Assembly (NCBI GenBank): GCA_021819825.1
Contig: JAKAEZ010000005.1
Location: 6,542-70,541, forward strand
Reading direction: 5' to 3'
Length of the DNA stretch: 64,000 nt
Source of the DNA: Planctomycetota bacterium
GTDB taxonomy: Bacteria > Planctomycetota > Phycisphaerae > WQYP01
Shown here piece after piece: positions 1-63,569 of the stretch (its first letter is position 1; every line of letters begins with the position of its first letter). The notes beneath the pieces were generated by a model. The model searched no databases. It was given only the letters and a program-made list of their open reading frames with translations, and had not been told where the DNA came from. A program made the position numbers and the translations under genes.

Positions 1-783
1 AACTTGATCTGCTTGAATAGGGGACATAAATTCTACGGTCAACGATTCACAATGAGCGCGCAAAACCGGCACGCGAACGCAGGTGGCAGAAATACGAATA
101 TCGGGGTCACCAAAGATTTTTCGCGTTTCTTTGACCATTTTTATTTCTTCTTCATTGTAGCCCGTATGCAAATCAACAGACGCGTTGTGGCTAAACACGT
201 TAAACGCGTACGGGTGGGGCAGCACCGTGGGGGGGTACTCCTGGCCATTGAGAGCTGCTTTTGTGGCGTCCAGCAATTCCTGCATGGCTGCCGCCCCGGC
301 ACCGCTGGCGGCCTGATAGGTAGCCGCAATAATCCGGGTGATTCGGTTAATTTTATATAGCGGCCACAACGGTACAATGGCAATGATCGTCGAGCAATTG
401 GGGTTGGCAATGATACCTTTATGGTTGTTGATCTCCTGTGGATTAATTTCCGGAACAATCAACGGCACATCCGGGTTCATCCGAAACGCCGAACTGTTAT
501 CTATGACTACCGCACCGGCTTTGGCGGCAATTGGACCAAATTTCTTGCTAAGCGAACCACCGGCGGAGAATAATGCAATATCCACGCCGGAAAAGCTCTG
601 CTCGGTGAGTTCATGCACCGCTAAGGATTGCCCGCGAAAGGCCAGGTGTTTTCCAGCACTGCGCGCGGAAGCAAAGAGCCGCAATTCAGCCAACGGAAAA
701 TTACGTTCCTCCAAGCATCGAAGAAACTCTACACCCACCGCACCGGTGGCACCGACAATAGCAACAATAGGAGGATGATTCAT
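1..783 (-). CDS. asd: Aspartate-semialdehyde dehydrogenase, N-terminal 261 codons (3' end runs off the window start)
   Basis: Absent from the ORF track because it is open at the window edge. My reverse-complement translation from the ATG (complement of 781-783) reads MNHPPIVAIVGATGAVGVEFLRCLEERNFPLAELRLFASARSAGK...FGPIAAKAGAVVIDNSSAFR...IIANPNCSTIIAIVPLWPL. This shows a GxxGxxG dinucleotide fold and the NPNCST active-site Cys motif typical of Asd. Confidence 0.9.
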   Translation of the reverse strand, partial: MNHPPIVAIVGATGAVGVEFLRCLEERNFPLAELRLFASARSAGKHLAFRGQSLAVHELTEQSFSGVDIALFSAGGSLSKKFGPIAAKAGAVVIDNSSAFRMNPDVPLIVPEINPQEINNHKGIIANPNCSTIIAIVPLWPLYKINRITRIIAATYQAASGAGAAAMQELLDATKAALNGQEYPPTVLPHPYAFNVFSHNASVDLHTGYNEEEIKMVKETRKIFGDPDIRISATCVRVPVLRAHCESLTVEFMSPIQADQV

Positions 784-947
784 GGCTTTCCTGTTAATCA
801 CGGTTCCATCTAACAACGCCCATTTCAACTTGAAAGGGCTTTTTCCGGAGGGATTATACTACAGGAGCACAGCAGATGGCACATCCAGCGACAAAGTGAC
901 GTTATTACTGCCCGTGACGGCGTATGGATTTGCTCCCATTTAGCGCA

Positions 948-975
948 ATTTAACATAACATATATTATCGGACCC
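948..975 (-). other. dif-like XerC/XerD recombination site (left prophage boundary)
   Basis: The complement reads GGGTCCGATAA-TATATG-TTATGTTAAAT. E. coli dif (from memory) is GGTGCGCATAA-TGTATA-TTATGTTAAAT. XerD arm 11/11, centre 4/6, XerC arm 7/11 with the inner ATAA conserved; 22/28 overall. Confidence 0.7.
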
Positions 976-1095
976 TGTAAATAACACCGGATCACGGGAA
1001 TTAGGCACCCAACGCATCAACCATCTCACGGGCAAACGCTACCACGCGGCCAATGCGTTCACGCCCGATAAGATCGCCGCGGCAAGGAACAAACC

Positions 1096-1293
1096 ATGCA
1101 AACCATCGCAACGACCTATTGCACACAATGCGGATACCTGTACTACGGAGAAGACCGCAAGGCAGCAATCAAGGCCAACATCAACCACGGAAGACAGCCC
1201 CAAAACAACAGCCACACCATCGTTACAGAAATCGCCCGCAAGGACCCAACCCGAGAACTCAAACCGATCACAATATTGTCCGCAAACCCCTGA
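1096..1293 (+). CDS. Small CxxC...H...H putative zinc-binding protein (paralog group with 9283-9483 and 9480-9686)
   Basis: 65 aa, ...TYCTQCGYLYYGEDRKAAIKANINHGRQPQNNSH... It has the same CxxC-(18-19 aa)-His-cluster layout as the two tandem mini-proteins downstream of the secretin-like gene. Confidence 0.5.
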   Translation: MQTIATTYCTQCGYLYYGEDRKAAIKANINHGRQPQNNSHTIVTEIARKDPTRELKPITILSANP

Positions 1294-1339
1294 ACAAAAC
1301 GGACCGACCAACAACCACGGGCACCTATTTTACAAGTGA

Positions 1340-1666
1340 ATGGAACCCAAGATGATGACCTATTGCATAAGAGGAAACGTCACCAACACCAAACGATGGA
1401 TGGACAAAGAAGGAACGCCCGGAACACTCGTTACCATCAGAGACGACAACCAGACCATGACCATCGCAACGACCAACGCACCACCAGAAATAGGCGACTT
1501 AATCGAAGCAATAGGCGGCCTGCGCGTAAAAAGCTACAAGGGATACACAAACACCGTCTTAACCCGGGCAACCATCCAAATTCTCATACCAGCAAAACAA
1601 TCCGAAACCGAAGGCGGAGAAACCCCGGCAACGCGCCGGGAACCGACCCAAGGACGGACAAATTAA
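1340..1666 (+). CDS. Hypothetical phage protein (ssDNA-binding role possible by position and size only)
   Basis: 108-aa ORF in the only frame with ordinary amino-acid composition. It lies just upstream of rep, where inoviruses keep small DNA-binding proteins. No motif recognised. Confidence 0.4.
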   Translation: MEPKMMTYCIRGNVTNTKRWMDKEGTPGTLVTIRDDNQTMTIATTNAPPEIGDLIEAIGGLRVKSYKGYTNTVLTRATIQILIPAKQSETEGGETPATRREPTQGRTN

Positions 1667-1678
1667 GGAGCCAGGACA

Positions 1679-1966
1679 ATGGCATCAGAGTACACATACC
1701 ACGGAATCCTGCAGGGAATCAAACCGGCCCTCGACTACAAGGGAAACCCGGAACCCGACTGCCAAGAGGTCATCATCAAGATCGACAGCGGCTTAGCCAC
1801 CGGCAGGGCAACCGGCGACTTCCCAGACATCGCGAAACACTTCGGCAAGGAAATCCGGTTAACCGGCCCAATCACCGTGAAATACTCCGAAAAGATGCGC
1901 AGAGCCTTTACGGACCTCGGCCCCGGCAAAATCACCGCCGCAACCAACCCCGGAAACCTCAAATAA
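1679..1966 (+). CDS. Hypothetical phage protein
   Basis: 95-aa ORF with an AAGGAG Shine-Dalgarno sequence 8 nt upstream of the ATG. Composition looks globular. No motif recognised. Confidence 0.5.
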   Translation: MASEYTYHGILQGIKPALDYKGNPEPDCQEVIIKIDSGLATGRATGDFPDIAKHFGKEIRLTGPITVKYSEKMRRAFTDLGPGKITAATNPGNLK

Positions 1967-1982
1967 GAAAACCTTTTCAAAC

Positions 1983-2038
1983 GGGGCCGGGCGAACGGCC
2001 GACGCGTCTCATAAACCCAGGCCAAGTACCCCGGCCCC
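1983..2038. other. GC-rich long-range hairpin upstream of rep (candidate origin or packaging signal)
   Basis: GGGGCCGGG (1983-1991) pairs with CCCGGCCCC (2030-2038). The loop contains the palindrome GACGCGTC. It is a conspicuous G-containing island in an otherwise G/T-poor strand, in the 90-nt gap before the rep ATG. Confidence 0.3.
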
Positions 2039-2056
2039 TAAGTAAAAAGAGACCAA

Positions 2057-3376
2057 ATGTACGTAGACAACCCACAACCCGAAACTGAAAAGCCGACCAC
2101 GCTATGGCGCGGAATCGACACGATCAAAATCGGCATCGGAGGAACCAACACCAACACCGCCCTACCCACACTACGCGAACTACAAGAACAAGTCCGGCAA
2201 TCCCCAGCCCAGTACCAATACGACTTAGCCGGCAAAGTATGGGCAATCCTCCCATACGGACGCAAAAAATACCGATACGGCCTGCAACACGGGCAACTAA
2301 GCCTATTCTTTTCCGAGGAAGAATACTCCCCGGAAACACCGAACATAATGGCCGAGGCCTACCCGTCCGCGATCGCCGGACGGAACGTACACGAACTGCA
2401 AAACGACATAAACATAGCCCTCGCAGAACTCGGAGTAGATCCCAACTGGACAAAAGTATCCGAACTACACCTAACCACCGATACACACGCCCCGGACAAA
2501 CTGGCCATCACCGACATCTACGACACCAACCACAACCCGCTATGGATCAGCAAGGCACGCAAAGTACAAGCAATCACGGACCACCAGCAGGACGTAGAAC
2601 GGCTAATAACACGCGGGGCAACCCTGCAAAGCCTCAGATACGGCGGATCACTGCTGCACGTCCGAATCTACAACAAGCAGGAGGAACTCAAAATACACCC
2701 CGACAAGCAATGGGAAATGACCCTATGGAACAACCCCTACGCGCAACACGTAACGCGCGTAGAATTCCAAATCCGCAGGGAAAAACTGAAATGCTTCCGC
2801 GTAGACGGAACCCAGAACCTACCAGGACAAATAGCAGGAATCTGGAAATACCTAACCGAGGAATGGTTCACATTAAACGAACGCAACCCCAACGGAAAGA
2901 ACCGCGACGCCACCCCATCCAAATTCTGGGAAACTGTACAAGGCGCATGGAAAACCGCAACACCACGGAAACCATACCCGAAGCCACAAGCCAACGCGGC
3001 CCAACGGCTTTCCCAAGCCTACGGAAACCTAATATCGGCCGCCGCCATACTGGACATGCACCAAGAGGCCCAGATAACCGACCTATTCAACTTATGGAAA
3101 CAAACCCACGGACAAGACTGGCCGGAACACGTCCGCCAACGCCAGGACAAAATACAAACGCTGCAAGGCAGGATACGCATCAGAGATCAAGCCCTCGAAC
3201 TCGAATTCGAGGAACACAATCGCGCACCGACTACCCCCATACTCGAAAAAACCAATGAAAATAAGCCCGAAATATCGCTATTTGCGCACTTAGAAGGGGG
3301 GATGCTATTAACCATCCCCAAAGCAGGCGGCGGCGTCTGCGCCGCCGCCGCCGCCAATGCCCAATGGGAAAGATAA
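2057..3376 (+). CDS. Rolling-circle replication initiator, Rep_trans (RstA/pII-like) family
   Basis: 439 aa. ...SLLHVRIYNKQEELK... resembles the R-x-Y-[DN]-K motif of Rep_trans proteins (pT181 RepC, CTXphi RstA). Size and position fit a filamentous-phage initiator. Confidence 0.7.
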   Translation: MYVDNPQPETEKPTTLWRGIDTIKIGIGGTNTNTALPTLRELQEQVRQSPAQYQYDLAGKVWAILPYGRKKYRYGLQHGQLSLFFSEEEYSPETPNIMAEAYPSAIAGRNVHELQNDINIALAELGVDPNWTKVSELHLTTDTHAPDKLAITDIYDTNHNPLWISKARKVQAITDHQQDVERLITRGATLQSLRYGGSLLHVRIYNKQEELKIHPDKQWEMTLWNNPYAQHVTRVEFQIRREKLKCFRVDGTQNLPGQIAGIWKYLTEEWFTLNERNPNGKNRDATPSKFWETVQGAWKTATPRKPYPKPQANAAQRLSQAYGNLISAAAILDMHQEAQITDLFNLWKQTHGQDWPEHVRQRQDKIQTLQGRIRIRDQALELEFEEHNRAPTTPILEKTNENKPEISLFAHLEGGMLLTIPKAGGGVCAAAAANAQWER

Positions 3377-3401
3377 CAAAAGAAACAAACAGGAAAAGAA
3401 G

Positions 3402-3662
3402 ATGAGGACGAAAACATGGATATACGTAATCGCGACAATCACTATTACCACGCTGGCATCGCAATCGCACGCATCGCCCGCACCCGTCACAATCTCCCAA
3501 CCGACAACAAGCCCAGTACCGGTATACCAGACGGAACCGGCCTACGACCCAGCCCTCGACGCATGGAGTGTAGTACAGGGATACGGCGACGCATTTTGCT
3601 TATGGGGCTTTACTTGGTCAGTATCGTATGTCTTGCGACTGCTTATCCGAACACTGTCATAG
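3402..3662 (+). CDS. Small exported protein (signal peptide plus hydrophobic-basic C-terminus), capsid or membrane component candidate
   Basis: MRTKTWIYVIATITITTLASQSHA/SPAP... looks like a signal peptide. The C-terminus is ...AFCLWGFTWSVSYVLRLLIRTLS. Start chosen at the internal ATG 3402 of track ORF 3357-3662. Confidence 0.45.
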   Translation: MRTKTWIYVIATITITTLASQSHASPAPVTISQPTTSPVPVYQTEPAYDPALDAWSVVQGYGDAFCLWGFTWSVSYVLRLLIRTLS

Positions 3663-3847
3663 CGTCAAACGCACCCACGACAATGCCAAATGGGGCAACA
3701 ATGACCGACAGCACGAACGACCCAAGCATAGTACTAAGTATCTGGAATGACACCGACCCGTACCTAATCAATCTGGCAGAAGCCATAGCCGCCCTCTGGG
3801 GCGCTTGGTGGGCATGGACGAAATTAACCGACACATTGACCGCCTAA
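3602..3847 (+). CDS. Coat-protein-like small protein (start uncertain: 3602 or 3683)
   Basis: This is the C-terminal part of track ORF 3416-3847. It has a signal-like segment MGLYLVSIVCLATAYPNTVIA, an acidic segment (TDSTNDPS...DTDPY), then the hydrophobic helix AEAIAALWGAWWAWTKL. It shares the WWAW motif with 3875-4210. It overlaps the 3' end of 3402-3662 in another frame. Confidence 0.35.
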   Translation: MGLYLVSIVCLATAYPNTVIASNAPTTMPNGATMTDSTNDPSIVLSIWNDTDPYLINLAEAIAALWGAWWAWTKLTDTLTA

Positions 3848-3874
3848 GCCGGGCCGTCAGAAAGAGAGGCCACG

Positions 3875-4210
3875 ATGTTGAAATCGTTGCTCCAAAACGC
3901 CACATCACGAGGCGTCAAGATCGTGAAGAACACTTACACCGCCCTCGGAAAAACCGGCCGCAAAATGGCCGCGCTGATCTTAGCCGGCGGAACCGTAACC
4001 GCGCTTGCCAACGTAGCGCACGCGAGCACTTCCGGCAGCACCACACCATCGACCGCTGCCGTGCAGTACTCCACCTTCTACAGCATGTACGACGTGCTTA
4101 ACAGCATATTGAACATCCTGTACCCCGTTGTGGTGCCCATCCTCATAGCCGGAAGCGCGATTTTCGTCGCGTGGTGGGCTTGGCACCGCCTCAAGGGAGC
4201 TGTCTCCTAA
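3875..4210 (+). CDS. Major-coat-protein-like (pVIII-like) protein
   Basis: 111 aa. Signal-like MAALILAGGTVTALANVAHA, a Ser/Thr-rich segment, the hydrophobic helix ILYPVVVPILIAGSAIFVAWWAW and the basic tail HRLKGAVS. AGAGAGG lies 5 nt upstream of the ATG. Confidence 0.55.
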   Translation: MLKSLLQNATSRGVKIVKNTYTALGKTGRKMAALILAGGTVTALANVAHASTSGSTTPSTAAVQYSTFYSMYDVLNSILNILYPVVVPILIAGSAIFVAWWAWHRLKGAVS

Positions 4211-4313
4211 GACAGAAGCCCCTTACAGCAACTGTGATCCGGCCGTGCGGCTGGCAGTAGCTTAATCACCCAAGACGGCCCGGCTTAGACGGCCAGCGCG
4301 AAAGGAAAGGACC

Positions 4314-6620
4314 ATGAAACATGTTACACGCAATCAGCTACATCGCAGGAATCCTATTATGGAAGTTCACCATGTACGACACTTGGTTAGGCCCAATGCT
4401 GGACCCGGAAAAATGGCGCAGGCCCCGAAGGTAGCCCTGCACTCCAACGGAGCCAACTTTCTCTACGCCGCCGCCCTCGGAACCGCGATACTGGCCGCCG
4501 CAGCCACCAGCGCAGGCGCGTACACCGCAGGATCAGCGGATTACGGACAAGTAATAAGCCAACTCCAACAAATGAACAGCGAAACCAGCCCAATGGACCA
4601 AGCAACGCTAACCTACCAAGTAGCCCAAGAAAACAACCTGCAAACCATCGAAAGCACCCTAAAGACCGCAACACAAACAAACCTAAACGGCACCCCAATG
4701 TCAATGTTAGCCCAAACAGTCGGCATCGGATCCTACAACCCGCCGACGTCGGCAATGACCTTCTCACCGACATACTACAGCCACGGAGGAACGGCGGCAC
4801 AAGGATTCCAAAGCGTATGGCAATGGATCCCAGGAACCCAAAGCCCCCGAAGCGTCTACGTAGACGGACAAGGATACTCCGTATTCCAAAGCCCCAACGG
4901 GAACAGCTACTTCGACTGGAACCCCTACAACGCGGCCGCCGTCAACGTGGAAACCACCGGCGACGCCAACTGGAACACAGCCAGCGCAACGACCGGAACA
5001 CCGTACAGCGTCTTCCGAGACAACTTCGGAAGCTCAGTGTTCACCAACACCAACGGACAAGCCTACCTATCCGCAGACTATCCCGTGCCACACGTGGCCA
5101 ACACAACTGCCGTTGGATCGGCCTTCACAACCGGCGTCGGCCTACAAACGTCGGTATTCCAATGGCAAGAGTACAACGCCAATACCGGAACCGGTTACGG
5201 CACAACCGAAGATAGCTCCGGATACCCAGAACCCATGTTCTCCGTGTTCACAGCAGGAAGCGGACCAAAATCAGGAAACGGAGCCCACGGCATAGGAAGC
5301 GTATTTGTCACCGACGACACACAAAACGGCAATGTAGACAATAGCGTATTTCTCGACCAATACGGAAACAGCTACCTAGACGACATAGAATCGGCACTAG
5401 CGCTGAGCACACCGACGTACCAAAGCATCTACGGCAACGCCAGCAACGGAAACACCTACGCATACAACCAATCCGGCCAACTCGAATGGATATCGCCATG
5501 GCAGCAAGGAGCCCAAACATACGCACAAACCAACGAACCCATCGGAATCGCCCAAATACTCGCCATAGCAGACGGCGAAGCCCCCGACTACAACCCAGCC
5601 ACCGACACGATAATGTTCACCCCATCCTACCAATACCTAACCAGCGCCAGCACGATGCAAAACCCACTAGAAACCATACAGCAATGGTACGCTGGACCCA
5701 ACGCCGGAGGCTGGCAATACAGCAACGAATTCGCCGCCGCTTTCTTTAATCCACCGGCAAGCGGGGCAACAACGCTTGTCCCTTATTTGTCCGCTTTTGG
5801 AGGCTGGCAAGACTCAATCGCCTACCAAGACAGCTTAACCACCAACGAGAACAACACCACCAGCGCAATAAACACGGCAGAAGGACAGTTGGACACCACT
5901 TTCAACAACTACGCGCCAACAACCACGCCCAGCCCGCAAACACCCGCAACCGGCTTACAAGGCGGCTGGTCCACATCATGGATACTGCCCATCAACGCAA
6001 TATCCACCACAATAGGGACAATCACCGACAGTGACACCGCCACCGAAGGAAACAACGCCGGATACGCCCTCGACAACAACTCGCACAATGTTGTAGGAGC
6101 CATACAAGACCTCATAAGCCGCATCCAACAGGGATCAGGATACAACCCGCCATCCAACCTACTGCAATACACCAAAACAACAAACTTAGCCCCGGAATAC
6201 ACCGGCGACGGAGGCGACAGCCCCAACGGCACAAGCAGCCAATACGCGACACTCGACGCGGTCGACGATGGAGAATTCAGCTTCCTTGCCGGAGCCGTTT
6301 ACGGAATGCAATGGTTCCGAGCCAATACGCCATGGCTGGCCTACATTTTCGGATTTTTCTTAACGCTCTTCACCGTACTGAAGGCATGGCAATTAATCTA
6401 CTGGGGAATCAACGGTGGAAGCTTCCCGCTCATATTCAACCCTCATAACCGCGTCCCCGGCAGCGCCGACTTAACGCCCGGAATAGCCAACATCGCCGGA
6501 ACATCCACGGCCAACGTCAAACCCGACTTTGCCACCACACAAGAACAATGGGAAACCCAGGACAAACTACGAAGCGGCCGCACGTTCACCAAGGCCGCAG
6601 ACGGGACGGAAGTATCATGA
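4314..6620 (+). CDS. Large adsorption/minor-coat (pIII-like) protein
   Basis: 768 aa. N-terminal hydrophobic segment FLYAAALGTAILAAAATSAGA; an N/T/S/G/Y/Q-rich body with recurring SVF motifs; a C-terminal membrane anchor WLAYIFGFFLTLFTVLKAW. GAAAGGAAAGGA ribosome-binding site. An alternative start at 4413 (MAQAPK...) would give a conventional signal peptide. Confidence 0.55.
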   Translation: MKHVTRNQLHRRNPIMEVHHVRHLVRPNAGPGKMAQAPKVALHSNGANFLYAAALGTAILAAAATSAGAYTAGSADYGQVISQLQQMNSETSPMDQATLTYQVAQENNLQTIESTLKTATQTNLNGTPMSMLAQTVGIGSYNPPTSAMTFSPTYYSHGGTAAQGFQSVWQWIPGTQSPRSVYVDGQGYSVFQSPNGNSYFDWNPYNAAAVNVETTGDANWNTASATTGTPYSVFRDNFGSSVFTNTNGQAYLSADYPVPHVANTTAVGSAFTTGVGLQTSVFQWQEYNANTGTGYGTTEDSSGYPEPMFSVFTAGSGPKSGNGAHGIGSVFVTDDTQNGNVDNSVFLDQYGNSYLDDIESALALSTPTYQSIYGNASNGNTYAYNQSGQLEWISPWQQGAQTYAQTNEPIGIAQILAIADGEAPDYNPATDTIMFTPSYQYLTSASTMQNPLETIQQWYAGPNAGGWQYSNEFAAAFFNPPASGATTLVPYLSAFGGWQDSIAYQDSLTTNENNTTSAINTAEGQLDTTFNNYAPTTTPSPQTPATGLQGGWSTSWILPINAISTTIGTITDSDTATEGNNAGYALDNNSHNVVGAIQDLISRIQQGSGYNPPSNLLQYTKTTNLAPEYTGDGGDSPNGTSSQYATLDAVDDGEFSFLAGAVYGMQWFRANTPWLAYIFGFFLTLFTVLKAWQLIYWGINGGSFPLIFNPHNRVPGSADLTPGIANIAGTSTANVKPDFATTQEQWETQDKLRSGRTFTKAADGTEVS

Positions 6621-6985
6621 ACGACGTACTGCAAATCGGAGATTTTGCCGCCAGACTCTTCTGGCATTTTGTTGTAGCCGCCCTTGGCCTCATTCAACAA
6701 CTCATAATATTTGTCACCCAAACCGGCTGGCAATTCCTAACCCAACTCCTCCAGGACGCCGCCAATATCTGCGGACTGGGAAACGCGATCCAACCCATCC
6801 AAGGGGCAATGCTGCCCTACTGGAACGATTGCAGCCTTATTGTCAACTGGATGGCAAGCACTTTCGTGGGCAACGGAACCCTGCAACTCTGCCTAAGCAT
6901 CATCATCAACGCACTGGCCGTCGCGCTGATCCTGCGAGGCGTATTCACCATCTACAGCAAGATACCAGTAGCAGGGAGAAACTAA
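6617..6985 (+). CDS. pVI-like integral membrane protein
   Basis: 122 aa starting at an ATG that overlaps the upstream stop (ATGA at 6617-6620). Hydrophobic segments FWHFVVAALGLIQQLIIFV and LCLSIIINALAVALILRGVF. It sits between the pIII-like and Zot-like genes, as in inoviruses. Confidence 0.45.
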   Translation: MNDVLQIGDFAARLFWHFVVAALGLIQQLIIFVTQTGWQFLTQLLQDAANICGLGNAIQPIQGAMLPYWNDCSLIVNWMASTFVGNGTLQLCLSIIINALAVALILRGVFTIYSKIPVAGRN

Positions 6986-7086
6986 TGATATTCGGATACA
7001 TCGTAATATTCATATTCTGCGTACTACCCACCCTACTTATGCTCGGAATATGCATCATGAACACATGGGAAGAATGGAAAAAGTAA
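6985..7086 (+). CDS. 33-aa hydrophobic peptide (pVII/pIX-like by size)
   Basis: MIFGYIVIFIFCVLPTLLMLGICIMNTWEEWKK. Its ATG overlaps the upstream stop (TAATG). It is too short for the ORF track except as the tail of spurious ORF 6529-7086. Confidence 0.35.
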   Translation: MIFGYIVIFIFCVLPTLLMLGICIMNTWEEWKK

Positions 7087-7089
7087 ACC

Positions 7090-8292
7090 ATGGACGGAAG
7101 CCTTACCATCATCGACGGCGAACCCGGGAACGGCAAAACCCTGCAAACCGTAAGGCTTATGCTGGACTCGGCCCGCAGACACCGCCACATCACAACCAAC
7201 GTGGCACTGAAGGCCGGCTTCATAAGAACCGCCAAGAAAATCTATCCCGACATCAAAATAATCAAACCCACCGCGGCCGAAGCCAAACTATTCTGGCAAT
7301 ACATACCGCCCGGAACCGATATCTACATCGACGAAGCCCATTTACTGTGGAACAGCAACTTTTGGAAGGAAAATCGGCAGAAAGATTTCCTTGAATACAT
7401 CAGCCAATTCCGCAAGGAAGGCGACACCATCTATCTATTGGCCCAGCACTACGAAAATCTTGACCTATTCATACGCCAACGCGCGTCAACACTGTGGACC
7501 TGCCGAGTACTCCGCTGGCCCCGCTGGATACCCATTAAATCACTGAAAACCGATACCGGCGGAAAACCGATACTCTTCTCGGTCAACGCATGGACCACCC
7601 GGGAAGGAGAACGGCACACCCGTAAATTCTTTCTACCCAGAATCTACACGCCCGGAATGTGCCAAGGTCTGTACCAGATGTACGACACCCGAGGAACCGT
7701 CGAAACATCCACAACCGGATACCGACACACCCGCCCAACATGGGCCCAATTCATGCAGCAGCAGGAGCCGAAAACCATGGCAACCATCCTAACCGAGGAC
7801 AACCCGACCGGAGAAGCCCAACCCGCCGCGGCAGCCCCGGCCACGAACCCAACCGTAGTCATCAACAACCAAGCCCCGACCGAACCACAGAAAAAGAGCC
7901 GACTAAAACGATACGCGACGATCACCGCAATCATACTTGCCGCCGGATTCATAGCCACGCAATATCAAAAAGACCACCCCAAAAAGAAAGAAACCCAACG
8001 GGCCAGCACAACGCGGATAGCACGCACAGGACCACCCAAACGACAACGGATCACCTACTACGGAACCATCGGAAACCAAGTCATTGTAAGCCAGAAAGGA
8101 CAATATGGACTCTGGACAATCGGGAAAAGCCAGGACGGATACGGTATCGCTATGGCCAATTCTAACGGTATTTTTCTGCGCGACCCTACTGGGAGGCTGC
8201 ACTACCGGGCTTGGTGGACTCCGCCGACCCATCACAATCACCATGACGCAACAAAGCCCAAACCCGCTACCGGGCCACTGGCCAAGTTTTGA
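7090..8292 (+). CDS. Zot/pI-family filamentous-phage assembly NTPase
   Basis: MDGSLTIIDGEPGNGKT...HITTNV parallels the CTXphi Zot N-terminus (...HHGAPGSYKT...HIITNV, recalled from memory). Walker B IYIDEAH. A single TM (YATITAIILAAGFIATQY) is followed by a ~100-aa periplasmic tail, as in pI. Confidence 0.85.
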   Translation: MDGSLTIIDGEPGNGKTLQTVRLMLDSARRHRHITTNVALKAGFIRTAKKIYPDIKIIKPTAAEAKLFWQYIPPGTDIYIDEAHLLWNSNFWKENRQKDFLEYISQFRKEGDTIYLLAQHYENLDLFIRQRASTLWTCRVLRWPRWIPIKSLKTDTGGKPILFSVNAWTTREGERHTRKFFLPRIYTPGMCQGLYQMYDTRGTVETSTTGYRHTRPTWAQFMQQQEPKTMATILTEDNPTGEAQPAAAAPATNPTVVINNQAPTEPQKKSRLKRYATITAIILAAGFIATQYQKDHPKKKETQRASTTRIARTGPPKRQRITYYGTIGNQVIVSQKGQYGLWTIGKSQDGYGIAMANSNGIFLRDPTGRLHYRAWWTPPTHHNHHDATKPKPATGPLAKF

Positions 8293-20454: not shown

Positions 20455-20717
20455 CTAGTGCCCTGTTCCGGTCATAATTACGGGTTGACGGAGGGCCAAG
20501 GGGTTGTGGGCGCGAAGCGAGGAGGATTGCGTATGGATGCATACGTTGACGGCGAGCGACAAAGCCCGCGGCCCCTTGGCCCCCGCCCGAAGGGTTGGCC
20601 TTAAACCGGCCATCTGCGGCGTCGCGTCGGCTCAAGGGGTTTACGAACCCGGTTCTCGCCGCATCTGGCCGGTTTAAGGCCAATCAACCCGTAATTATGG
20701 CTGGAACAGGGCACTAG
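20455..20717 (+). ncRNA. Unclassified structured RNA element, copy 1 (263 nt)
   Basis: 34-bp closing helix 20455-20488/20684-20717, with two G-U pairs only if the + strand is read. Inner helices: 20490-20503/20572-20584, 20506-20511/20564-20569, hairpin 20530-20545, 20597-20611/20667-20681, 20615-20621/20657-20663, and hairpin 20637-20650 with a UACG loop. The helices covary with copy 2. Confidence 0.75.
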
Positions 20718-35079: not shown

Positions 35080-35517
35080 TTATTTACCTTTGCCAAACGC
35101 GTGTCTGATGTAGTTAATTACCTCCCAGCGTTGCTTGCGGCTCAATGAATCACGGAAACTGGGCATGGGGCTGTGACCGTGCGTAATTTTCCAGAAAATA
35201 GCTCCGTCTGTTTGCGCCAGGAAAGAAGCTTTTGTTAAATTGGCCGGATGGGGGTTTAAAAATGCTCCCGTCGGCCCATCTCCTTTTCCATTGGATCCAT
35301 GGCACGCCTCGCAATTTTGAGAAAATATCGCGTATCCCGCTTGAATGGCTGCCGCGGACATGGGAATAGGATTTTTCTTTTTCCATGCGGAATGCGGAGC
35401 TTTCCAACTTGATAATGCAATGGGTTTGCCAACGGTGGAAATGGCGATATTACCGTTGCTTGCCACCATGGCAGAGCCGATGATGACCACCGCTAGTTTC
35501 GATAAGTTTGACAACAT
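35080..35517 (-). CDS. Class I c-type cytochrome (paralog A)
   Basis: Signal peptide, CEACH heme motif, ...HSPMPSF... distal Met region. The C-terminal ~90 aa are near-identical to those of 35954-36397. Confidence 0.85.
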   Translation of the reverse strand: MLSNLSKLAVVIIGSAMVASNGNIAISTVGKPIALSSWKAPHSAWKKKNPIPMSAAAIQAGYAIFSQNCEACHGSNGKGDGPTGAFLNPHPANLTKASFLAQTDGAIFWKITHGHSPMPSFRDSLSRKQRWEVINYIRHAFGKGK

Positions 35518-35953: not shown

Positions 35954-36397
35954 GTGATGAATCAGCTACGCACGATCTTAGCAGTTGGTGGACTAGTAAG
36001 CGTCTTGGGTGTGTCCTTGGCGGCAGGCTTGAACATAAATACCTTCCGGAAGCAAATAGACCGCGTGGATTCATGGCGGGCACCTGCTTCCGCTGCGTCA
36101 AAAGCGAACCCAATTCCCGGTACTTCGGCCGCCATAAGCGCGGGCAGGAGCCTGTTTTCCGCCAATTGTGAGGCGTGTCACGGATCCAATGGCACGGGGG
36201 ATGGTCCGACCGGAGCGTTTCTAAGCCCGCATCCGGCTAATTTAACCACGGCATCGTTCTGGTCTCAGGGCGAAGGGGCCATCTTCTGGAAAATCACGCA
36301 TGGTCACAGCCCCATGCCCAGCTTCCGTGATTCATTGAGCCGTAAACAGCGATGGGAAGTTATTGATTATCTCAAGAAGCAATTCGATAAACATTAA
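35954..36397 (+). CDS. Class I c-type cytochrome (paralog B)
   Basis: Signal peptide, CEACH heme motif, ...GAIFWKITHGHSPMPSFRDSLSRKQRWEV... Confidence 0.85.
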   Translation: MMNQLRTILAVGGLVSVLGVSLAAGLNINTFRKQIDRVDSWRAPASAASKANPIPGTSAAISAGRSLFSANCEACHGSNGTGDGPTGAFLSPHPANLTTASFWSQGEGAIFWKITHGHSPMPSFRDSLSRKQRWEVIDYLKKQFDKH

Positions 36398-47420: not shown

Positions 47421-49883
47421 ATGAAAGGTTTGTCTCGCAGAAAACTTATGACTGGTGCCGCCGCGGGTTCGGCGATGCTGCTGGCGCACCGGGCGGCACG
47501 GGCGACAATTCCCCAGGGGCGGCAAACCGGATACGCTTCACCGGGCACGGGTGCCATGAAGGCGTATGATTTTGATTTGGCCGATGTGAAAATTCTGCCC
47601 GGGCCGTTTCATGAGAACATGACCCGTGATCTGAATTATCTGCTGGCCTACGATTGCAACCGTCTGCTGGCCTCCTTTCAAAAAGTGGCGGGTATCGCTC
47701 CCAAGGCTCCGAATTTAGGGGGATGGGACAGCGCGGGGCAAGCAGGCACCATTTGCGGACATTACCTTTCGGCCTGTGCGATGATGTATTCCCATACCCG
47801 TGATCATCGCCTGCTGGAGAAAATTGATTATTTGCTGCCCCGTCTGGCGGAATGCCAAAAAGCCAATGGTAAAAGCGACCCGCAATTTAAGGGCTATTGT
47901 GCGGGGTTGCCGGCCAGCGTTGCGGCCTTCAAAAAGGCTCTGGCCGGTGACATCAACGTGGGCAATCCCAAAGCGCTTTTTACCTTTTCACTTAATGGCA
48001 TGTGGTCACCGTGGTATTCCATCCATAAAATCATGGCGGGCCTGCGCGATACGTGGCTTTATACCGGGCGTCCGCAGGCGAAGGATATTCTTATTGGTCT
48101 GGCGGATTGGAGCGCCCAATTTCCGCGCAAGCTTACTGAATCACAGATGCAGATCATGCTGATCAGTGAACAGGGCGGAATGAATGAAGTGTTGGCGGAT
48201 GTGTACAGCATTACCGGGAATCGCAAATATCTAAAAATCGCGGAGGCTTTTAATGAAAAATCCCAGCTTGATCCCCTGATGCACAGAAGGGATATTCTCA
48301 CCGGTTGCCATTCCAATCAGTATATTCCCCGCGTCATTGGCATTGCCCGGCAGTATGAACTCGGCGGCCGGCAGCGCTATCGCACGGGTGCGGAATTTTT
48401 CTGGGAAACGGTCGTCCGCCATCGCAGTTACGTATTTGGCGGCAACAGCAACCACGAATACTTTTTCCCACTGGGCGATGCCTGGCAGCAGCTAAGTGTG
48501 GGCACTGCTGAGACCTGCTGCACCTATAACATGCTGAAACTCACCGGCCATTATTTCTGCTGGAACGCCACCATGGAAGCCGCGGACTTTTTTGAGCGTG
48601 CTTTGGTGAATCATATTTTAGGCTCGCAGGATCCAGACACCGGCATGATGACGTATTACATCTCCATGCGTCCGGGCCATTTTAAGACGTTCAACACCCC
48701 GTGGGATTCCTGCTGGTGCTGCATGAGTACCGGCATGGAGAATCACGCCAAGTATGCGCGGGGCGTTTATTACCACAATGATAAAACTTTATGGATCAAC
48801 TTGTTTCTTGCCTCGGAACTCAATTGGAAGGCCGCCGGCATGACCGTACGCCAGAGCACGCGTTTTCCTGATGATGGCAAGGTACGCATGGATTTTACCT
48901 GCGAAAAATCCACCGAGGCGCTTATTAAACTTCGACACCCTTATTGGTCGACTCCGTCGATGGTCGTTCGTCTTAATGGGAAGCAGATCAGTGCGGGCAA
49001 TCCAGGCGAATATCTGGACCTTAACCGAACGTGGAATAATGGCGACAAACTGGAGATTGAACTTAAAATGCCATTGCGCATTGAACGCATGGCCCACCAT
49101 CCCTCCACGTTTGCTATTCTGGCCGGCCCGACCGTGCTGGCGGCCCCTTTGGGTAATGATCTGATGCTACCCCCGGTGCCGTATGCCAATGGCAATCAAT
49201 ATGAATGGGCCAATGTTGCTGATCCAGAGACCATTCCGCAATTGCTTGTGGATCAGGCTCCGGTAGACCAATGGGTAAAGCCTGATCCGCACAAACCGCT
49301 GGTCTGGCATACGCATGGCGTAGGTCGGCCACATGATGTAAAACTTGTACCGTTTTATAAAGTAGCCCATGAACGCTATGTGGTTTATTTTAATCCGCTA
49401 ACGCAAAATCAATGGCTCCAGGAAAAACGGCTTGAGGCCCAACGCAAAAAAACACAACAACTGATTCATCACGGCACCGTGGATCGGCTGATTATCGGGA
49501 ATGCTGCATCGCTTGCGGCTCATCAACTCCGTGATCAGATAAATGTGGATCAAGGACATTCACCGGAAGGCCGCTGGATCGACGCCCATGATGGCGGAGG
49601 TTTCACTTTTAACCTGAAAGTGTTACCGGATGCACCCATGGCTCTAGCCTGTACCTGGTGGGGAAGCGATAACGGTGCGCGAAAATTCAACATTCTGGTT
49701 GACGGGCACCCCATCGCCACGCAGGTGCTGGAAAACATCGACCCGGGCCGGCTGGATACCCTGCTATACGACATTCCGCGCACAATAACCCACGGCAAAA
49801 CAACCATCACCGTTCGCCTGCAAGCCGATCCGGGCAACTTCGCCGGCGGCCTATTCGACTGCCGCAGCATCAGGCTGCGGTGA
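47421..49883 (+). CDS. Tat-exported GH127-family (DUF1680, beta-L-arabinofuranosidase-like) glycoside hydrolase
   Basis: Twin-arginine signal SRRKLMTGAAAGSAML. ...NHEYF... and ...WDSCWCCMSTGMENHAKY... (the Cys-Cys motif of GH127). Confidence 0.75.
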   Translation: MKGLSRRKLMTGAAAGSAMLLAHRAARATIPQGRQTGYASPGTGAMKAYDFDLADVKILPGPFHENMTRDLNYLLAYDCNRLLASFQKVAGIAPKAPNLGGWDSAGQAGTICGHYLSACAMMYSHTRDHRLLEKIDYLLPRLAECQKANGKSDPQFKGYCAGLPASVAAFKKALAGDINVGNPKALFTFSLNGMWSPWYSIHKIMAGLRDTWLYTGRPQAKDILIGLADWSAQFPRKLTESQMQIMLISEQGGMNEVLADVYSITGNRKYLKIAEAFNEKSQLDPLMHRRDILTGCHSNQYIPRVIGIARQYELGGRQRYRTGAEFFWETVVRHRSYVFGGNSNHEYFFPLGDAWQQLSVGTAETCCTYNMLKLTGHYFCWNATMEAADFFERALVNHILGSQDPDTGMMTYYISMRPGHFKTFNTPWDSCWCCMSTGMENHAKYARGVYYHNDKTLWINLFLASELNWKAAGMTVRQSTRFPDDGKVRMDFTCEKSTEALIKLRHPYWSTPSMVVRLNGKQISAGNPGEYLDLNRTWNNGDKLEIELKMPLRIERMAHHPSTFAILAGPTVLAAPLGNDLMLPPVPYANGNQYEWANVADPETIPQLLVDQAPVDQWVKPDPHKPLVWHTHGVGRPHDVKLVPFYKVAHERYVVYFNPLTQNQWLQEKRLEAQRKKTQQLIHHGTVDRLIIGNAASLAAHQLRDQINVDQGHSPEGRWIDAHDGGGFTFNLKVLPDAPMALACTWWGSDNGARKFNILVDGHPIATQVLENIDPGRLDTLLYDIPRTITHGKTTITVRLQADPGNFAGGLFDCRSIRLR

Positions 49884-50030
49884 TGAATGCTGCGGCAGCA
49901 GTTGGACCGGGGGCCAGTCTCCACGGTTGGGTCCGAGCAAGCAAGGCCTGCCACATTGCGGCAATCAACACCGCTCCGGAGCCACTTGGTACTGGAAAGC
50001 GTGAACGGCAATCCGAGACCCGGTGGATCT

Positions 50031-50304
50031 CTAGTGCTCTGTCACGCCTAAATATTAGGATTGACGGAGGGCCAGGGGGCTGTGGGCGCGAAGCGAGGAG
50101 GATTGTGTATGGGAACATACATTGACGACAAGCGACAAAGCCCACGGCCCCCTGGCCCCCGCCCCGCGGGGTTGGCCGCAAACGCCCCATCTGCGGCGTC
50201 GCAGCAGCTCAAGGGGTCTACGGACCGGGTTTTCGCCGCTGCTTCTTGCATCTGGGGCCTTTGCGGCCAATCAATCCTAATATTTAGGCGTGACAGAGCA
50301 CTAG
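50031..50304 (+). ncRNA. Unclassified structured RNA element, copy 2 (274 nt)
   Basis: Perfect 34-bp closing helix 50031-50064/50271-50304. Same helix architecture and conserved single-stranded blocks as copy 1, with a GGAA (GNRA) loop and a UACG loop. 13 of 34 closing-helix positions differ from copy 1, and every one is compensated. Confidence 0.75.
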
Positions 50305-50485
50305 ACGGATAGACCGAGTTGGCTCGGCCCTAATGGTTGTTAAAAGGAGCCGCTGCCGGGCGCCTATGTTGATTTATTGACACCGGGCGCTTTGCCGCCA
50401 AAGCTCCGAACCACAGTGCTTTCCGAGACACAACCGGTATGAACGTAAACGGCCCGATGGACTAAATCTGGAACCCGGATCGTTC

Positions 50486-51472
50486 TCATGGGTTGCGCGG
50501 TGGGCCGAAGCCAAAGCCTGGAGGTGGGCCAAAGCCTGGGGGACCGAATGGACGTAGGCCTTGACCTCTTTGATACCGCCCTCGCCGTAATCGTCGGGGC
50601 GGCTGTTTGTAGAAGCTGTGGTCGGGCGTGCCGCGGAAGAAGCGGGATATCTGCGGGAAATTGTAGGTGACAACATAATAAAATGTGCCGTGCGGGTATT
50701 CCGGTGTAATCCCATACCGGCCATTGGCCTGATCCAGATCGCCCAGGCCCGGGACATAATGGAAGTCTCCCTCGAAGGTGCCGTCGTACTTACCGCCGGG
50801 TCCGCTCGGCGGATTGGGACGATTGCCGGTTTTGAGTTGATAACTGGATTTCAGCAGCTTGATCCCGCTGGAGCTATCGTGTGGATTTTTGTACCCCCAC
50901 GGCCCGTACATTGGAAATCCATCGGCAGCAAAGCCAATCAGACAGACTTTTCCCCAACCGCGGCGCTGCCGAATCAGATCGGTGGGTACACCGTGGTAGT
51001 GATACGTGCCGTCCCCCTGCACATGGGCGTGGCTTTGATCCAATCCTAACCGAAGATGACCGGTCAACAGACAATAATTCCAGATGGAACCGCGCTGGTT
51101 ATTCCAGAAGGCGGCTGTACCCGGATCAAATGGTACGCCGTCAAGACCGACGCCAAAAATAATTCTGTTCACCAGGGGTTTGAGAAAATGATTTTCGCGA
51201 GGACTTAGCGGCATGCGGAAATGAAAATTTTGCGGTTGGATTGTATTGGGGCATCCTCGGTCAGGAAACTTTCCAACCGGATGATTGGGAATATCGTTGC
51301 ATGTGATATAGCGGTAACCTCCGCGGATCGTCATTTGAAAAATGCTTTTGTCCGTAAGCGTAACATCGGGGTCAACAAACGCGCGGGCGTTTGATGCTGT
51401 TTCGGCCACAGCCGCAGCCATTCCCATTGCCTGCAAAAACGTGCGTCGTGTCTGAGGTGTTGTAAGTTCCAT
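50486..51472 (-). CDS. Tat-exported YHYH-domain protein
   Basis: Twin-arginine signal TRRTFLQAMGMAAA. GDGTYHYHGVP motif. Gly/Pro/Phe-rich C-terminal tail. Confidence 0.75.
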   Translation of the reverse strand: MELTTPQTRRTFLQAMGMAAAVAETASNARAFVDPDVTLTDKSIFQMTIRGGYRYITCNDIPNHPVGKFPDRGCPNTIQPQNFHFRMPLSPRENHFLKPLVNRIIFGVGLDGVPFDPGTAAFWNNQRGSIWNYCLLTGHLRLGLDQSHAHVQGDGTYHYHGVPTDLIRQRRGWGKVCLIGFAADGFPMYGPWGYKNPHDSSSGIKLLKSSYQLKTGNRPNPPSGPGGKYDGTFEGDFHYVPGLGDLDQANGRYGITPEYPHGTFYYVVTYNFPQISRFFRGTPDHSFYKQPPRRLRRGRYQRGQGLRPFGPPGFGPPPGFGFGPPRNP

Positions 51473-62124: not shown

Positions 62125-62790
62125 ATGGATAACGATATGACACAACATGATGAATCCGACGCGGTACAACGGGCGATCTCCACACGCTTGGCACGATTGA
62201 ATACGATCCCGGTGGATACCAGTCGGCTGGATCAACTGTTGCGCGATCAGATTCCTATGCCTCGGAAACATCGCCCGTTTCTGGTATTCGGTTGGCTGGC
62301 CGGCGCAGGGGCAGCGGCTTGCGCCGCACTTATTATTGCCGCGGCGTTGCTGTTTACCGGACCGCCGCGACTATCAGCTGCGGAACTCGCGGGCGTATAC
62401 CAGAACCTCGCGGCCCAGCCCGGCATCAAGCAGACCGGCTCGCAAGCCAATTCTCCCGTCCAGATGGCACCGGGGATGGTCTGTATGTTGAAGTCCGGGC
62501 AGATCGCGTCGTGTTGTCGGCAGACGGTGGGAAAATATCGTCTGGCATGTGTTGCCGTAAAATCTCCATCCCGTGCGAGCGTGGTGATGGTGGCCGGCAA
62601 TGCCGGTAAAGTAAACTGTCCACAGGGGCAAGCAGTCACCATCGCGGGCCATTCATATTCGCTGGTTGTTTCCGGTCATATCAATATGCTTATGCGCCGG
62701 GTCGGTAAGCGCTGGTACTGTGCCATGGGATCTGAAAAACCCGGTTCATTGGCACAGTATCTGGGGCAGATTGCTCCGACGAAACGGTAA
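62125..62790 (+). CDS. Putative single-pass anti-sigma factor
   Basis: Located immediately downstream of the ECF sigma gene. It has a cytoplasmic N-terminus, one TM (FLVFGWLAGAGAAACAALIIAAALLF) and a Cys-containing periplasmic domain. Confidence 0.5.
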   Translation: MDNDMTQHDESDAVQRAISTRLARLNTIPVDTSRLDQLLRDQIPMPRKHRPFLVFGWLAGAGAAACAALIIAAALLFTGPPRLSAAELAGVYQNLAAQPGIKQTGSQANSPVQMAPGMVCMLKSGQIASCCRQTVGKYRLACVAVKSPSRASVVMVAGNAGKVNCPQGQAVTIAGHSYSLVVSGHINMLMRRVGKRWYCAMGSEKPGSLAQYLGQIAPTKR

Positions 62791-62843
62791 GCCCAGGAGC
62801 CTGTCCCAGTAATGGCCGGGATTGCGATTACTCGGACAGGCTC

Positions 62844-63569
62844 CTATCGGACAGGCGGAATTGAGGCCTCTGTCAAAACGTTCGTATTTGAGGCATGGCT
62901 CGGCAATAAATCGGCATAGTATCGACCATCGCGTACAACCACCTGTCCTGTTTGCACATCCAATGGCTGCGAAAAAATCGGACCGGCATAAACAAAGGTA
63001 TGAAACTCCCCATTTTCCCCGCAGGGATCAATGTCGGCAGGCAAATCAGAAAGTAATTGATTATCAAAGCTCCGCCCCCCAAACCCCGGCCCAACCTTGT
63101 CTTCAACACAGGAAAGATACCCTTTAAAACCCAGAGCAATTATCTCTCGGGCCAAAACCGAGGTAGGACGTTTCCAGAGCGGAAATATCGCCTGCATACC
63201 AATGGTAGCCAGATTTTTCTCCCGCCAGGCCCGAAGATCCTCCAAAAATAAATCGCCAAAGCCCACGGTTTCAACGCCCCGGCGTTTATAGCGGCCCATG
63301 GCGTCACCCATGATCTGTTCGTAAACTGCGTTGGTGCAGGGATGGGAATTTTGGGAGGGCAAATAGATTTTATCCAATGGAATGCCAATCGCCTGGGCCT
63401 GCAACTCCAGCAATTCCTCGCGCACGCCATGGTGACTGATACGTTTGAATTCTTCGGAGACTGTGGTCAGCAACGCCACCACTTCGTAATCCGCGCGGCG
63501 GGACAGCTCATAAAGCGCCATCGCACAATCTTTTCCCCCGCTCCAGGATAGGACCACCGGTATTTTCAT
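62844..63569 (-). CDS. PP-loop ATP pyrophosphatase, Dph6-related (DUF71/MJ0570 family)
   Basis: MKIPVVLSWSGGKDCAMAL is an SGGKD PP-loop. ~240 aa. Confidence 0.75.
   Translation of the reverse strand: MKIPVVLSWSGGKDCAMALYELSRRADYEVVALLTTVSEEFKRISHHGVREELLELQAQAIGIPLDKIYLPSQNSHPCTNAVYEQIMGDAMGRYKRRGVETVGFGDLFLEDLRAWREKNLATIGMQAIFPLWKRPTSVLAREIIALGFKGYLSCVEDKVGPGFGGRSFDNQLLSDLPADIDPCGENGEFHTFVYAGPIFSQPLDVQTGQVVVRDGRYYADLLPSHASNTNVLTEASIPPVR

Follow-up and report, generated by a model that had tools for sequence, protein, structure and literature searches.

The 64,000-nt stretch of Planctomycetota DNA analysed here (the window) contains two copies of a strongly structured sequence, and the second of them (copy 2) raises the question of whether its structure marks an RNA that serves the host or a repeat that has spread through the genome. 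The earlier note had compared the two copies and had taken the compensated changes in their helices as the signature of selection on RNA structure, and not of a recently copied repeat. Copy 2 is indeed a real, diverged copy of the sequence at 20455–20717 on the same strand, and all of the blocks and helices that had been quoted from it were found where the note placed them (coordinates in the table below). It also lies between convergent genes as described, flanked by a GH127-like gene (47421–49883, + strand) and a YHYH-domain gene (50486–51472, − strand).

Features of the two window copies, their parts and the related family 2. Positions without a locus label refer to the window; L-numbers denote other loci.
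Feature	Position	Strand	Remarks
Element copy 1 (subfamily A)	20455–20717	+	263 nt
Element copy 2 (subfamily B)	50031–50304	+	274 nt, CTAG to CTAG; ends read CTAG-TGCTCTGTCACGCCTAAATATTAGGATTGA ... TCAATCCTAATATTTAGGCGTGACAGAGCA-CTAG
Element end sequences			CTAGTGCYCTGT... and CTAGGAGCCTGTCC...
Left CTAG of copy 2	50031–50034		Putative target-site duplication, or else a cleavage tetranucleotide; nearly all copies carry it at each end
Right CTAG of copy 2	50301–50304		Same basis as the left CTAG
5' arm of terminal inverted repeat / closing helix P1	50031–50064	+	
3' arm of terminal inverted repeat / P1	50271–50304	+	
Arm P2	50065–50161	+	Long irregular helix
P2 purine-rich internal loop	50088–50105 opposite 50122–50139		Possible tandem G.A pairs
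P2 apical hairpin	50105–50122		YGUAUG/CAUACR, loop variable
P3 mini-hairpin	50163–50170	+	CC-loop-GG, at the junction
Arm P4	50171–50271	+	7 covarying pairs
P4 hairpin	50213–50227		UACG loop, closing pair covaries
Family 2 elements	L058 4998–5282; L025 100–590; L005, L009, L014, L043, L045; L061 125–179		
Family 2 mini member	62793–62847	+	55-nt near-perfect hairpin; ends CYAG-GAGCCTGTCC...GGACAGGCTC-CTAK

The predicted RNA fold of copy 2 has three arms: P1 is the closing stem, and P2 and P4, both long and irregular, are separated by a mini-hairpin. Its energy is −186.6 kcal/mol (z = −15.9), and that of copy 1, which is without 11 nt in the apical region of P4, is −182.4 kcal/mol (z = −14.5); for neither copy was any of 200 shuffles as stable. 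The perfect 34-bp closing stem of the earlier description was confirmed at 34–35 bp, the 35-nt arms 50030–50064 and 50271–50305 being 100% complementary. The outer 12 nt of P1 (CTAGTGCYCTGT) are conserved in every subfamily, and the inner ~22 nt are subfamily-specific. In our own reading of the alignment, the large purine-rich loop of P2 can be drawn as alternating G-C pairs and putative tandem G.A pairs. The motif GGATTGACG at the P1/P2 junction (50058–50066) recurs, split round the apical hairpin of P2 (50100–50105 and 50122–50127), in the form GGATTG-hairpin-TTGACG and at equivalent positions in all copies, as if the junction had been duplicated and the duplicate then interrupted by the 16-nt hairpin.

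The pairs of the two window copies were compared by scoring them on the consensus structure. By the summary count, 21 helix pairs differ and 19 of them are still paired. The 13 preserved differences that had been counted in the closing helix were recovered in P1, where 13 of the 33 pairs differ and all remain paired; 11 of these changed on both sides, and two changed on one side only, giving G.U in copy 1. In the internal helices, both partners changed in eight pairs and one partner in two more, with pairing kept in all of these. The two broken pairs are both in copy 2, a C.C (alignment columns 155:233) and a G.G (186:200), so the description of the helices as fully compensated was nearly right and only slightly overstated. 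The single-stranded blocks are present as quoted but overall are not more conserved than the helices, with 17 of 66 unpaired columns differing between the subfamily consensuses vs 58 of 212 paired columns.

The same structure was examined in 17 full-length copies. Among them, 97.0% of the cells are paired, vs 36–46% when the partners are slid, and 29 pairs have changed on both sides, 16 in P1 (of 33) and 13 in the internal helices. The covariation score of these copies is 0.234 vs 0.106 in shuffles, and none of 500 shuffles reaches 0.234, although this control overstates the significance because the copies are related; a more honest guide is given by the slide control and by how many distinct pair types occur. 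The changes include transversion swaps (GC to CG at columns 156–158; CG, UA, and AU at 190:196) and three different closing pairs under a conserved YACG loop. Covariation in P1 alone is not evidence of an RNA, since a comparison of subfamilies would reveal it in any element with terminal inverted repeats, but covariation in the internal helices does indicate that pairing is constrained. In 14 of 14 copies the + strand folds more stably than the other; the mean difference is 12.7 kcal/mol with RNA parameters vs only 3.0 kcal/mol with DNA parameters. Seven pairs are G.U in the majority of copies, one of them being the U..G of the YACG tetraloop, and none is A.C in the majority; the wobble pairs of the consensuses occur on the + strand only. 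From the stability of the + strand, together with G.U pairs and no corresponding A.C pairs, it follows that there has been selection on some single-strand structure.

The distribution of the sequence does not fit the claim that it is not a recently copied repeat. When one genome per species was scanned for exact matches to the 18-mer GCGAAGCGAGGAGGATTG, 58 loci were returned, of which 10 are chance matches and 48 carry the element, all in seven Phycisphaerae/Planctomycetota MAGs. The total is ~50 copies in the seven MAGs (~20 in DZDI01, 10 in DAHVEJ01, nine in JAKATV01, and five in JBMFVX01), with the dispersal and the ends of a transposon-like repeat. Copies found independently of the 18-mer vary within it, its apparent invariance in the first alignment being an ascertainment effect. 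For finding copies nhmmer was sufficient, as they are at least 80% identical; one extra copy came from JGI metagenomes and four from ENA and JGI contigs. A second metagenome scan, with a P4-arm pattern against JGI, returned one contig only (L061), and the family is rare in the JGI data. Many copies are located at contig ends, and in Logan assemblies of another sample the contigs stop within each of the window copies, as assemblers do at repeats. The whole window gave no match to Rfam 15 at the gathering score and spurious matches only, mostly to miRNA hairpin models, at E ≤ 10; blastn against plasmid and phage collections did not match the element, and a scan of viral contigs gave one chance match only (L062). 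No paper on the family was found, and it appears to be undescribed so far.

Full-length copies measure 263–277 nt, and paralogous copies at unrelated loci of one genome are 0–2 nt apart (~99% identical). Copy 1 differs by 2 nt in 263 from a copy at a different locus (L029), and copy 2 by 2 nt in 273 from a copy (L024) in the MAG JAKATV01; this MAG is closely related to the window organism, the flanks being 95–98% identical. The two window copies thus represent two subfamilies, A and B, each amplified recently. The two subfamilies coexist in one genome with inner terminal repeats that differ at 13 of 34 positions, and either only the outer 12 bp is read or pairing itself matters. The JAKATV01 contigs carrying L024 and L004 were also compared with window positions 49733–50604: the downstream flank of copy 2 is found on one contig with a different upstream flank, and the window-like upstream flank is found on another contig, which ends inside the element. 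Either copies recombined and so rearranged the flanks, or the assembly was joined wrongly at the repeat.

The earlier conclusion of selection on RNA structure holds in so far as the compensation reaches the internal helices, but no constraint on individual insertions was seen. The subfamily consensuses pair at 102–106 of 106 positions. Private substitutions, however, are no rarer in paired columns (0.026 per column per copy) than in unpaired ones (0.019), and sporadic G.U (28 cells) and sporadic A.C (21 cells) are about equally frequent. The orthologues L018 and L049 are 94.9% identical vs 97.6% and 89.9% for the flanking genes, and copy 2 and its JAKATV01 orthologue are 99.3% identical vs 98.9% for the flank, so that orthologous copies diverge at roughly the rate of the sequence around them. 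It is in the propagating lineages, that is, in the founders, that the fold is selected, and not at each locus; a fold kept in founders without constraint in situ marks a selfish mobile element rather than a gene for a host RNA.

The orientation of the copies agrees with this. The earlier note had left the choice between a mobile element with CTAG ends and a module associated with 3' untranslated regions; the CTAG-bounded mobile repeat is much the better supported of the two, and the orientation to neighbouring genes is mixed. Each window copy has a co-oriented gene upstream of it, but over all sites the element has the same orientation as the upstream gene at ~8 and the opposite orientation at five, and it is antisense to both neighbouring genes at L014 and L054. 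A fixed 3'-UTR module was rejected on these counts. No promoter- or terminator-like sites accompany either window copy.

Nearly all copies are bounded by CTAG...CTAG, and the sequence beyond the CTAG is unrelated or variable. The earlier note had named a transposon with protein-recognised terminal repeats as the finding that would speak against its RNA reading, and a conserved inverted repeat with CTAG on both sides is what the copies have, although the transposase itself was not found. CTAG is rare in the window, with 26 observed vs 247 expected from base composition (~10-fold depleted) and 49 expected under a Markov model; the two element copies supply four of the 26 with their ends, and the other CTAG pairs of the window, checked as further elements, have no inverted repeats. 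TCGA, AGCT, and ACGT are also under-represented in the window. At L002 and L029, a flanking ORF ends on a TAG stop codon that is part of the terminal CTAG, and at L043 the stop codon abuts the CTAG. Derivative forms include an internal deletion (L003), truncated copies (L013, L015, L057, and L063), and a mosaic with subfamily-B ends and a subfamily-A core (L041). One copy (L066) has TTAG on its left side. A solo terminal-repeat remnant (CTAGTGCTCTGTCAC) followed by unrelated sequence lies at 41–55 of L037, where the adjoining ORF looks like the C-terminus of an RHS-type toxin.

A second family of elements (family 2) with ends CTAG-GAGCCTGTCCAAGTAAT... has the 5' strand of the P4 arm in common with the family described above (family 1), as well as a similar GA-rich loop and hairpin. 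It occurs in forms of ~55 nt, ~286 nt, and ~490 nt, the longest carrying an extra insert of ~260 nt. Chimeras of the two families were found at L006 and L019, and at L022, L025, L030, and L061 a family-1 and a family-2 element abut with a single shared CTAG. The P4 arm is better conserved between the families than the termini are. The 55-nt hairpin of the window reads CCAG-GAGCCTGTCCCAGTAATGGCC...ATTACTCGGACAGGCTC-CTAT (z = −5.5) and lies 3 nt past the stop codon of the ORF at 62125–62790, between convergent genes; the same kind of hairpin abuts the family-1 copy in L061. Directly downstream of that tandem, at 455–1048 of L061, are two small ORFs that, judged by eye, look like a nucleotidyltransferase/HEPN-type toxin-antitoxin pair.

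The ends of both families were compared with IS5-type ends. Members of the IS5 family make a 4-bp YTAR duplication and have ends starting with GA or GG, and IS630-type elements duplicate TA, here within CTAG. CTAG fits YTAR, and family 2 begins with GAGCC; family 1 begins with TGC or, should the duplication cover TA alone, with GTGC. Empty sites were sought by flank-to-flank blast among 60 loci, which yielded only occupied orthologous sites, and by an exact empty-site pattern for copy 2 in JGI metagenomes, which gave 0 matches. Exact-protein look-ups with all four flanking genes of the window copies led to the same contig or to Logan contigs that break inside the element. No empty site was found, and the duplication of CTAG and true mobility are therefore inferred rather than shown.

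The element appears to depend on functions supplied by others. An SD-like GGAGGA stands 7 nt ahead of an AUG at 50109 in copy 2, the AUG lying within the stem of the P2 hairpin, and the pair was considered as the start of a lost transposase gene; this was rejected, as the frame is broken by indels between copies, running for 23 codons in copy 1 and 67 in copy 2. A search of 5.8 billion proteins with the ORF of the element returned only 14 short ORFs (59–116 aa), all from other copies, and this only ORF is not conserved among copies. An autonomous partner was sought by its terminal repeats, which returned only element ends, the solo remnant in L037, and chance matches, and by a generic search for YTAR-bounded inverted repeats 0.3–3.5 kb apart, which returned no insertion sequence. 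All-against-all blastp of 756 ORFs in 411 kb of loci gave no multi-copy protein, and Pfam on 38 of the 53 ORFs of the 64-kb window (a greedy selection) gave no transposase, including no Y1 transposase. No longer element with the same ends was found. The missing transposase or autonomous insertion sequence is weak evidence, because the MAGs are fragmented exactly at repeats.

Two further features of the window were observed. A run of same-strand ORFs at 338–10375, most without a Pfam match and including a Zot-like assembly ATPase (7090–8292) and a TraX-like protein (9452–10375), may be an integrated filamentous-phage-like element. At 35080–35517 (− strand) and 35954–36397 (+ strand) are two divergent, closely similar c-type cytochrome genes (CxxCH); together they make up an inverted duplication of ~1 kb, and the inverted repeats at 35235/36245 match it.

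The best reading of copy 2 is that it is one insertion of a non-autonomous MITE-like element family of Phycisphaerae, because the element is small, lacks a conserved ORF, is multi-copy and dispersed, and has a 34-bp terminal inverted repeat, CTAG flanks, subfamilies, and derivatives. We consider it very probable that the sequence is a mobile non-autonomous repeat and not a host RNA gene. A transposase supplied in trans would cut at the conserved ends, and the element would have been inserted into the rare palindromic target CTAG, with duplication of either the whole CTAG, as in the IS5-type 4-bp YTAR, or the TA within it, as in the IS630 type. The three-arm fold of the + strand may be maintained by selection among the lineages still copying, acting on a single-stranded intermediate or on read-through transcripts; in transcripts, the fold would close the element into a compact hairpin and bury the SD-like/AUG sequence. 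A copy once inserted would be free of structural constraint and would decay. That the enzyme is specifically a DDE transposase acting on a MITE has, in our estimate, slightly less than an even chance. It is favoured by the anatomy of the ends, namely the conserved outer repeat, the CTAG palindrome, the tandems sharing one CTAG, and the insertions on TAG stop codons. On the other side, an enzyme that binds double-stranded DNA does not explain the internal covariation, the wobble pairs on the + strand only, or the YACG loop, and for a deletion-derived MITE it is unusual that P4 is conserved better than the termini between families. The missing transposase and empty site, and the coexistence in one genome of subfamilies with different inner repeats, also count against this reading. 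This strand-specific internal structure is the reason why a HUH/RAYT-like mechanism is kept as a strong rival.

The reading closest to that of the earlier note, in which a host-functional structured ncRNA or 3'-UTR module exists in few copies whose helices are selected at each locus, is improbable and strongly disfavoured. The internal covariation, the conserved + strand G.U pairs, the YACG loop with its covarying closing pair, the possible tandem G.A motif, and the position of both window copies downstream of co-oriented genes would suit such an RNA, but it would have to be reconciled with dozens of copies at unrelated loci with transposon-like ends, with truncated and chimeric copies, with insertions antisense to both neighbours, with private substitutions and orthologue divergence that point to no constraint in situ, and with the absence of promoter or terminator signals at the window copies and of any Rfam match. 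An explanation without structural selection would treat the element as a DNA quasi-palindrome whose arms are kept complementary by template switching or by gene conversion between arms and between copies, the compensation being a by-product. Long inverted repeats are known substrates for template-switch correction, the mosaic copies show recombination between copies, and individual copies are under no selective constraint. Template switching would, however, erase wobble pairs and asymmetric internal loops, and six G.U pairs of the helices, like the large purine-rich loops, are retained from one subfamily to another, with no A.C position retained; the same strand is favoured in all 14 copies, and the YACG loop is conserved under three different closing pairs. 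There is little likelihood, in our view, that such correction accounts for the element.

A mobile element that depends on its RNA is also very unlikely. In that case, the folded RNA would itself be copied (retro-mobility), or it would guide or recruit a recombinase acting in trans, and the element would belong, as a non-autonomous partner, to a transposition system that uses RNA. The asymmetry between the strands is of the RNA type, selection is seen at the founder level only, and the P4 arm and the GA-rich loop with its hairpin are common to two families with different ends. Terminal inverted repeats and a palindromic 4-bp flank nevertheless belong to the classic picture of a DNA transposon; no reverse transcriptase, IS110, TnpB, or IscB gene was found nearby among the window ORFs examined and the loci, no omega-RNA, bridge-RNA, or intron was matched in Rfam, and the loops have no obvious complementarity to the flanks. 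The REPIN-like alternative is unlikely but deserves more weight: a HUH tyrosine transposase (RAYT/TIRYT or IS200/IS605-like) would recognise the folded + strand as single-stranded DNA, cleave at CTAG, and insert the element 3' of another CTAG, so that the flanking CTAGs would be a tag and not a duplication. It would account for a strand-specific fold whose inner stem and internal arms are conserved in structure rather than in sequence and for selection that is visible in founders and not in situ; the tetranucleotide tag at the ends resembles the GTAG of REPs, and there is a minimal hairpin form of 55 nt. REPINs often show compensatory changes (PMC3116915), and REP/RAYT and TIR/TIRYT systems have been reported in Planctomycetes (PMC3733652). 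At 270 nt and three arms, however, the element is far larger than REPs or REPINs, its strand asymmetry is large with RNA parameters only, no Y1 transposase was found in the window ORFs examined or the loci, and a 34-bp end-to-end inverted repeat is typical of TIR elements and not of IS200/IS605 ends. Across these mechanisms, we regard it as rather improbable that the + strand fold is the functional core of mobility, used by a trans-acting recombinase, a reverse transcriptase, or a HUH enzyme; if it were, the element would be a structure-dependent non-autonomous transposon, of a kind undescribed in Planctomycetota, and not a passive deletion-derived MITE.

The MITE-like family is a cautionary case for RNA discovery, as perfect compensation between two copies, even in internal helices, can stem from the subfamilies of a mobile repeat. 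It is confined to the poorly studied lineage Phycisphaerae, and its evolutionary signature is unusually clean, with founders that keep a strand-specific three-arm fold and inserted copies that decay neutrally. If the fold is needed for mobility, the family would offer a tractable model of structure-dependent transposition and would mark CTAG, strongly avoided in this genome, as an insertion target.

Among known systems, bcr1 of the Bacillus cereus group (~155 bp) is a dispersed, transcribed, MITE-like repeat with short flanking direct repeats, in which compensatory changes keep a multi-stem, cruciform-like RNA fold and some copies lose the structure (PMC3184786). The element resembles bcr1 in being a dispersed MITE-like repeat with a fold kept by compensatory changes and some unstructured copies, and differs from it in its unrelated sequence and phylum and in its CTAG where bcr1 has 5-bp direct repeats. 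The element is also larger (263–277 nt), has three arms and a 34-bp closing stem, and is known from sequence alone. In REPINs, compensatory changes keep a hairpin in single-stranded DNA or mRNA, and selection acts on the replicative unit and not on the locus (PMC3116915, PMC3733652). REPs and REPINs share with the element a palindromic mobile unit and a conserved tetranucleotide tag, but they measure 20–40 nt and ~100 nt, respectively, and have a GTAG (or CGTC) tag and a linked RAYT gene, whereas the element has a CTAG tag, ~270 nt, and a branched fold, with no RAYT in the window ORFs examined; the size of a REP is matched only by the 55-nt family-2 hairpin. Like the IS5/IS630-derived MITEs (Nezha/ISNpu3, RUP, Correia/NEMIS, and ERIC), it has terminal inverted repeats, a short, putative palindromic target, intergenic positions, stable predicted RNA hairpins, and subfamilies, and it shows the general features of MITEs, being shorter than ~500 bp, without a transposase gene, and present in many near-identical dispersed copies. 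It differs from them in that no cognate insertion sequence was found in the searched loci and in that its internal region is not mere filler, as 13 internal pairs covary and two families share an arm. Its covariation and fold stability are comparable to those of curated RNA families in Rfam 15, but its copy number, ends, and pattern of decay are those of a repeat and not of a gene. As mobile repeats with compensatory hairpins are already known in bcr1 and REPINs, the kind of element is known, and this family of it appears to be new.
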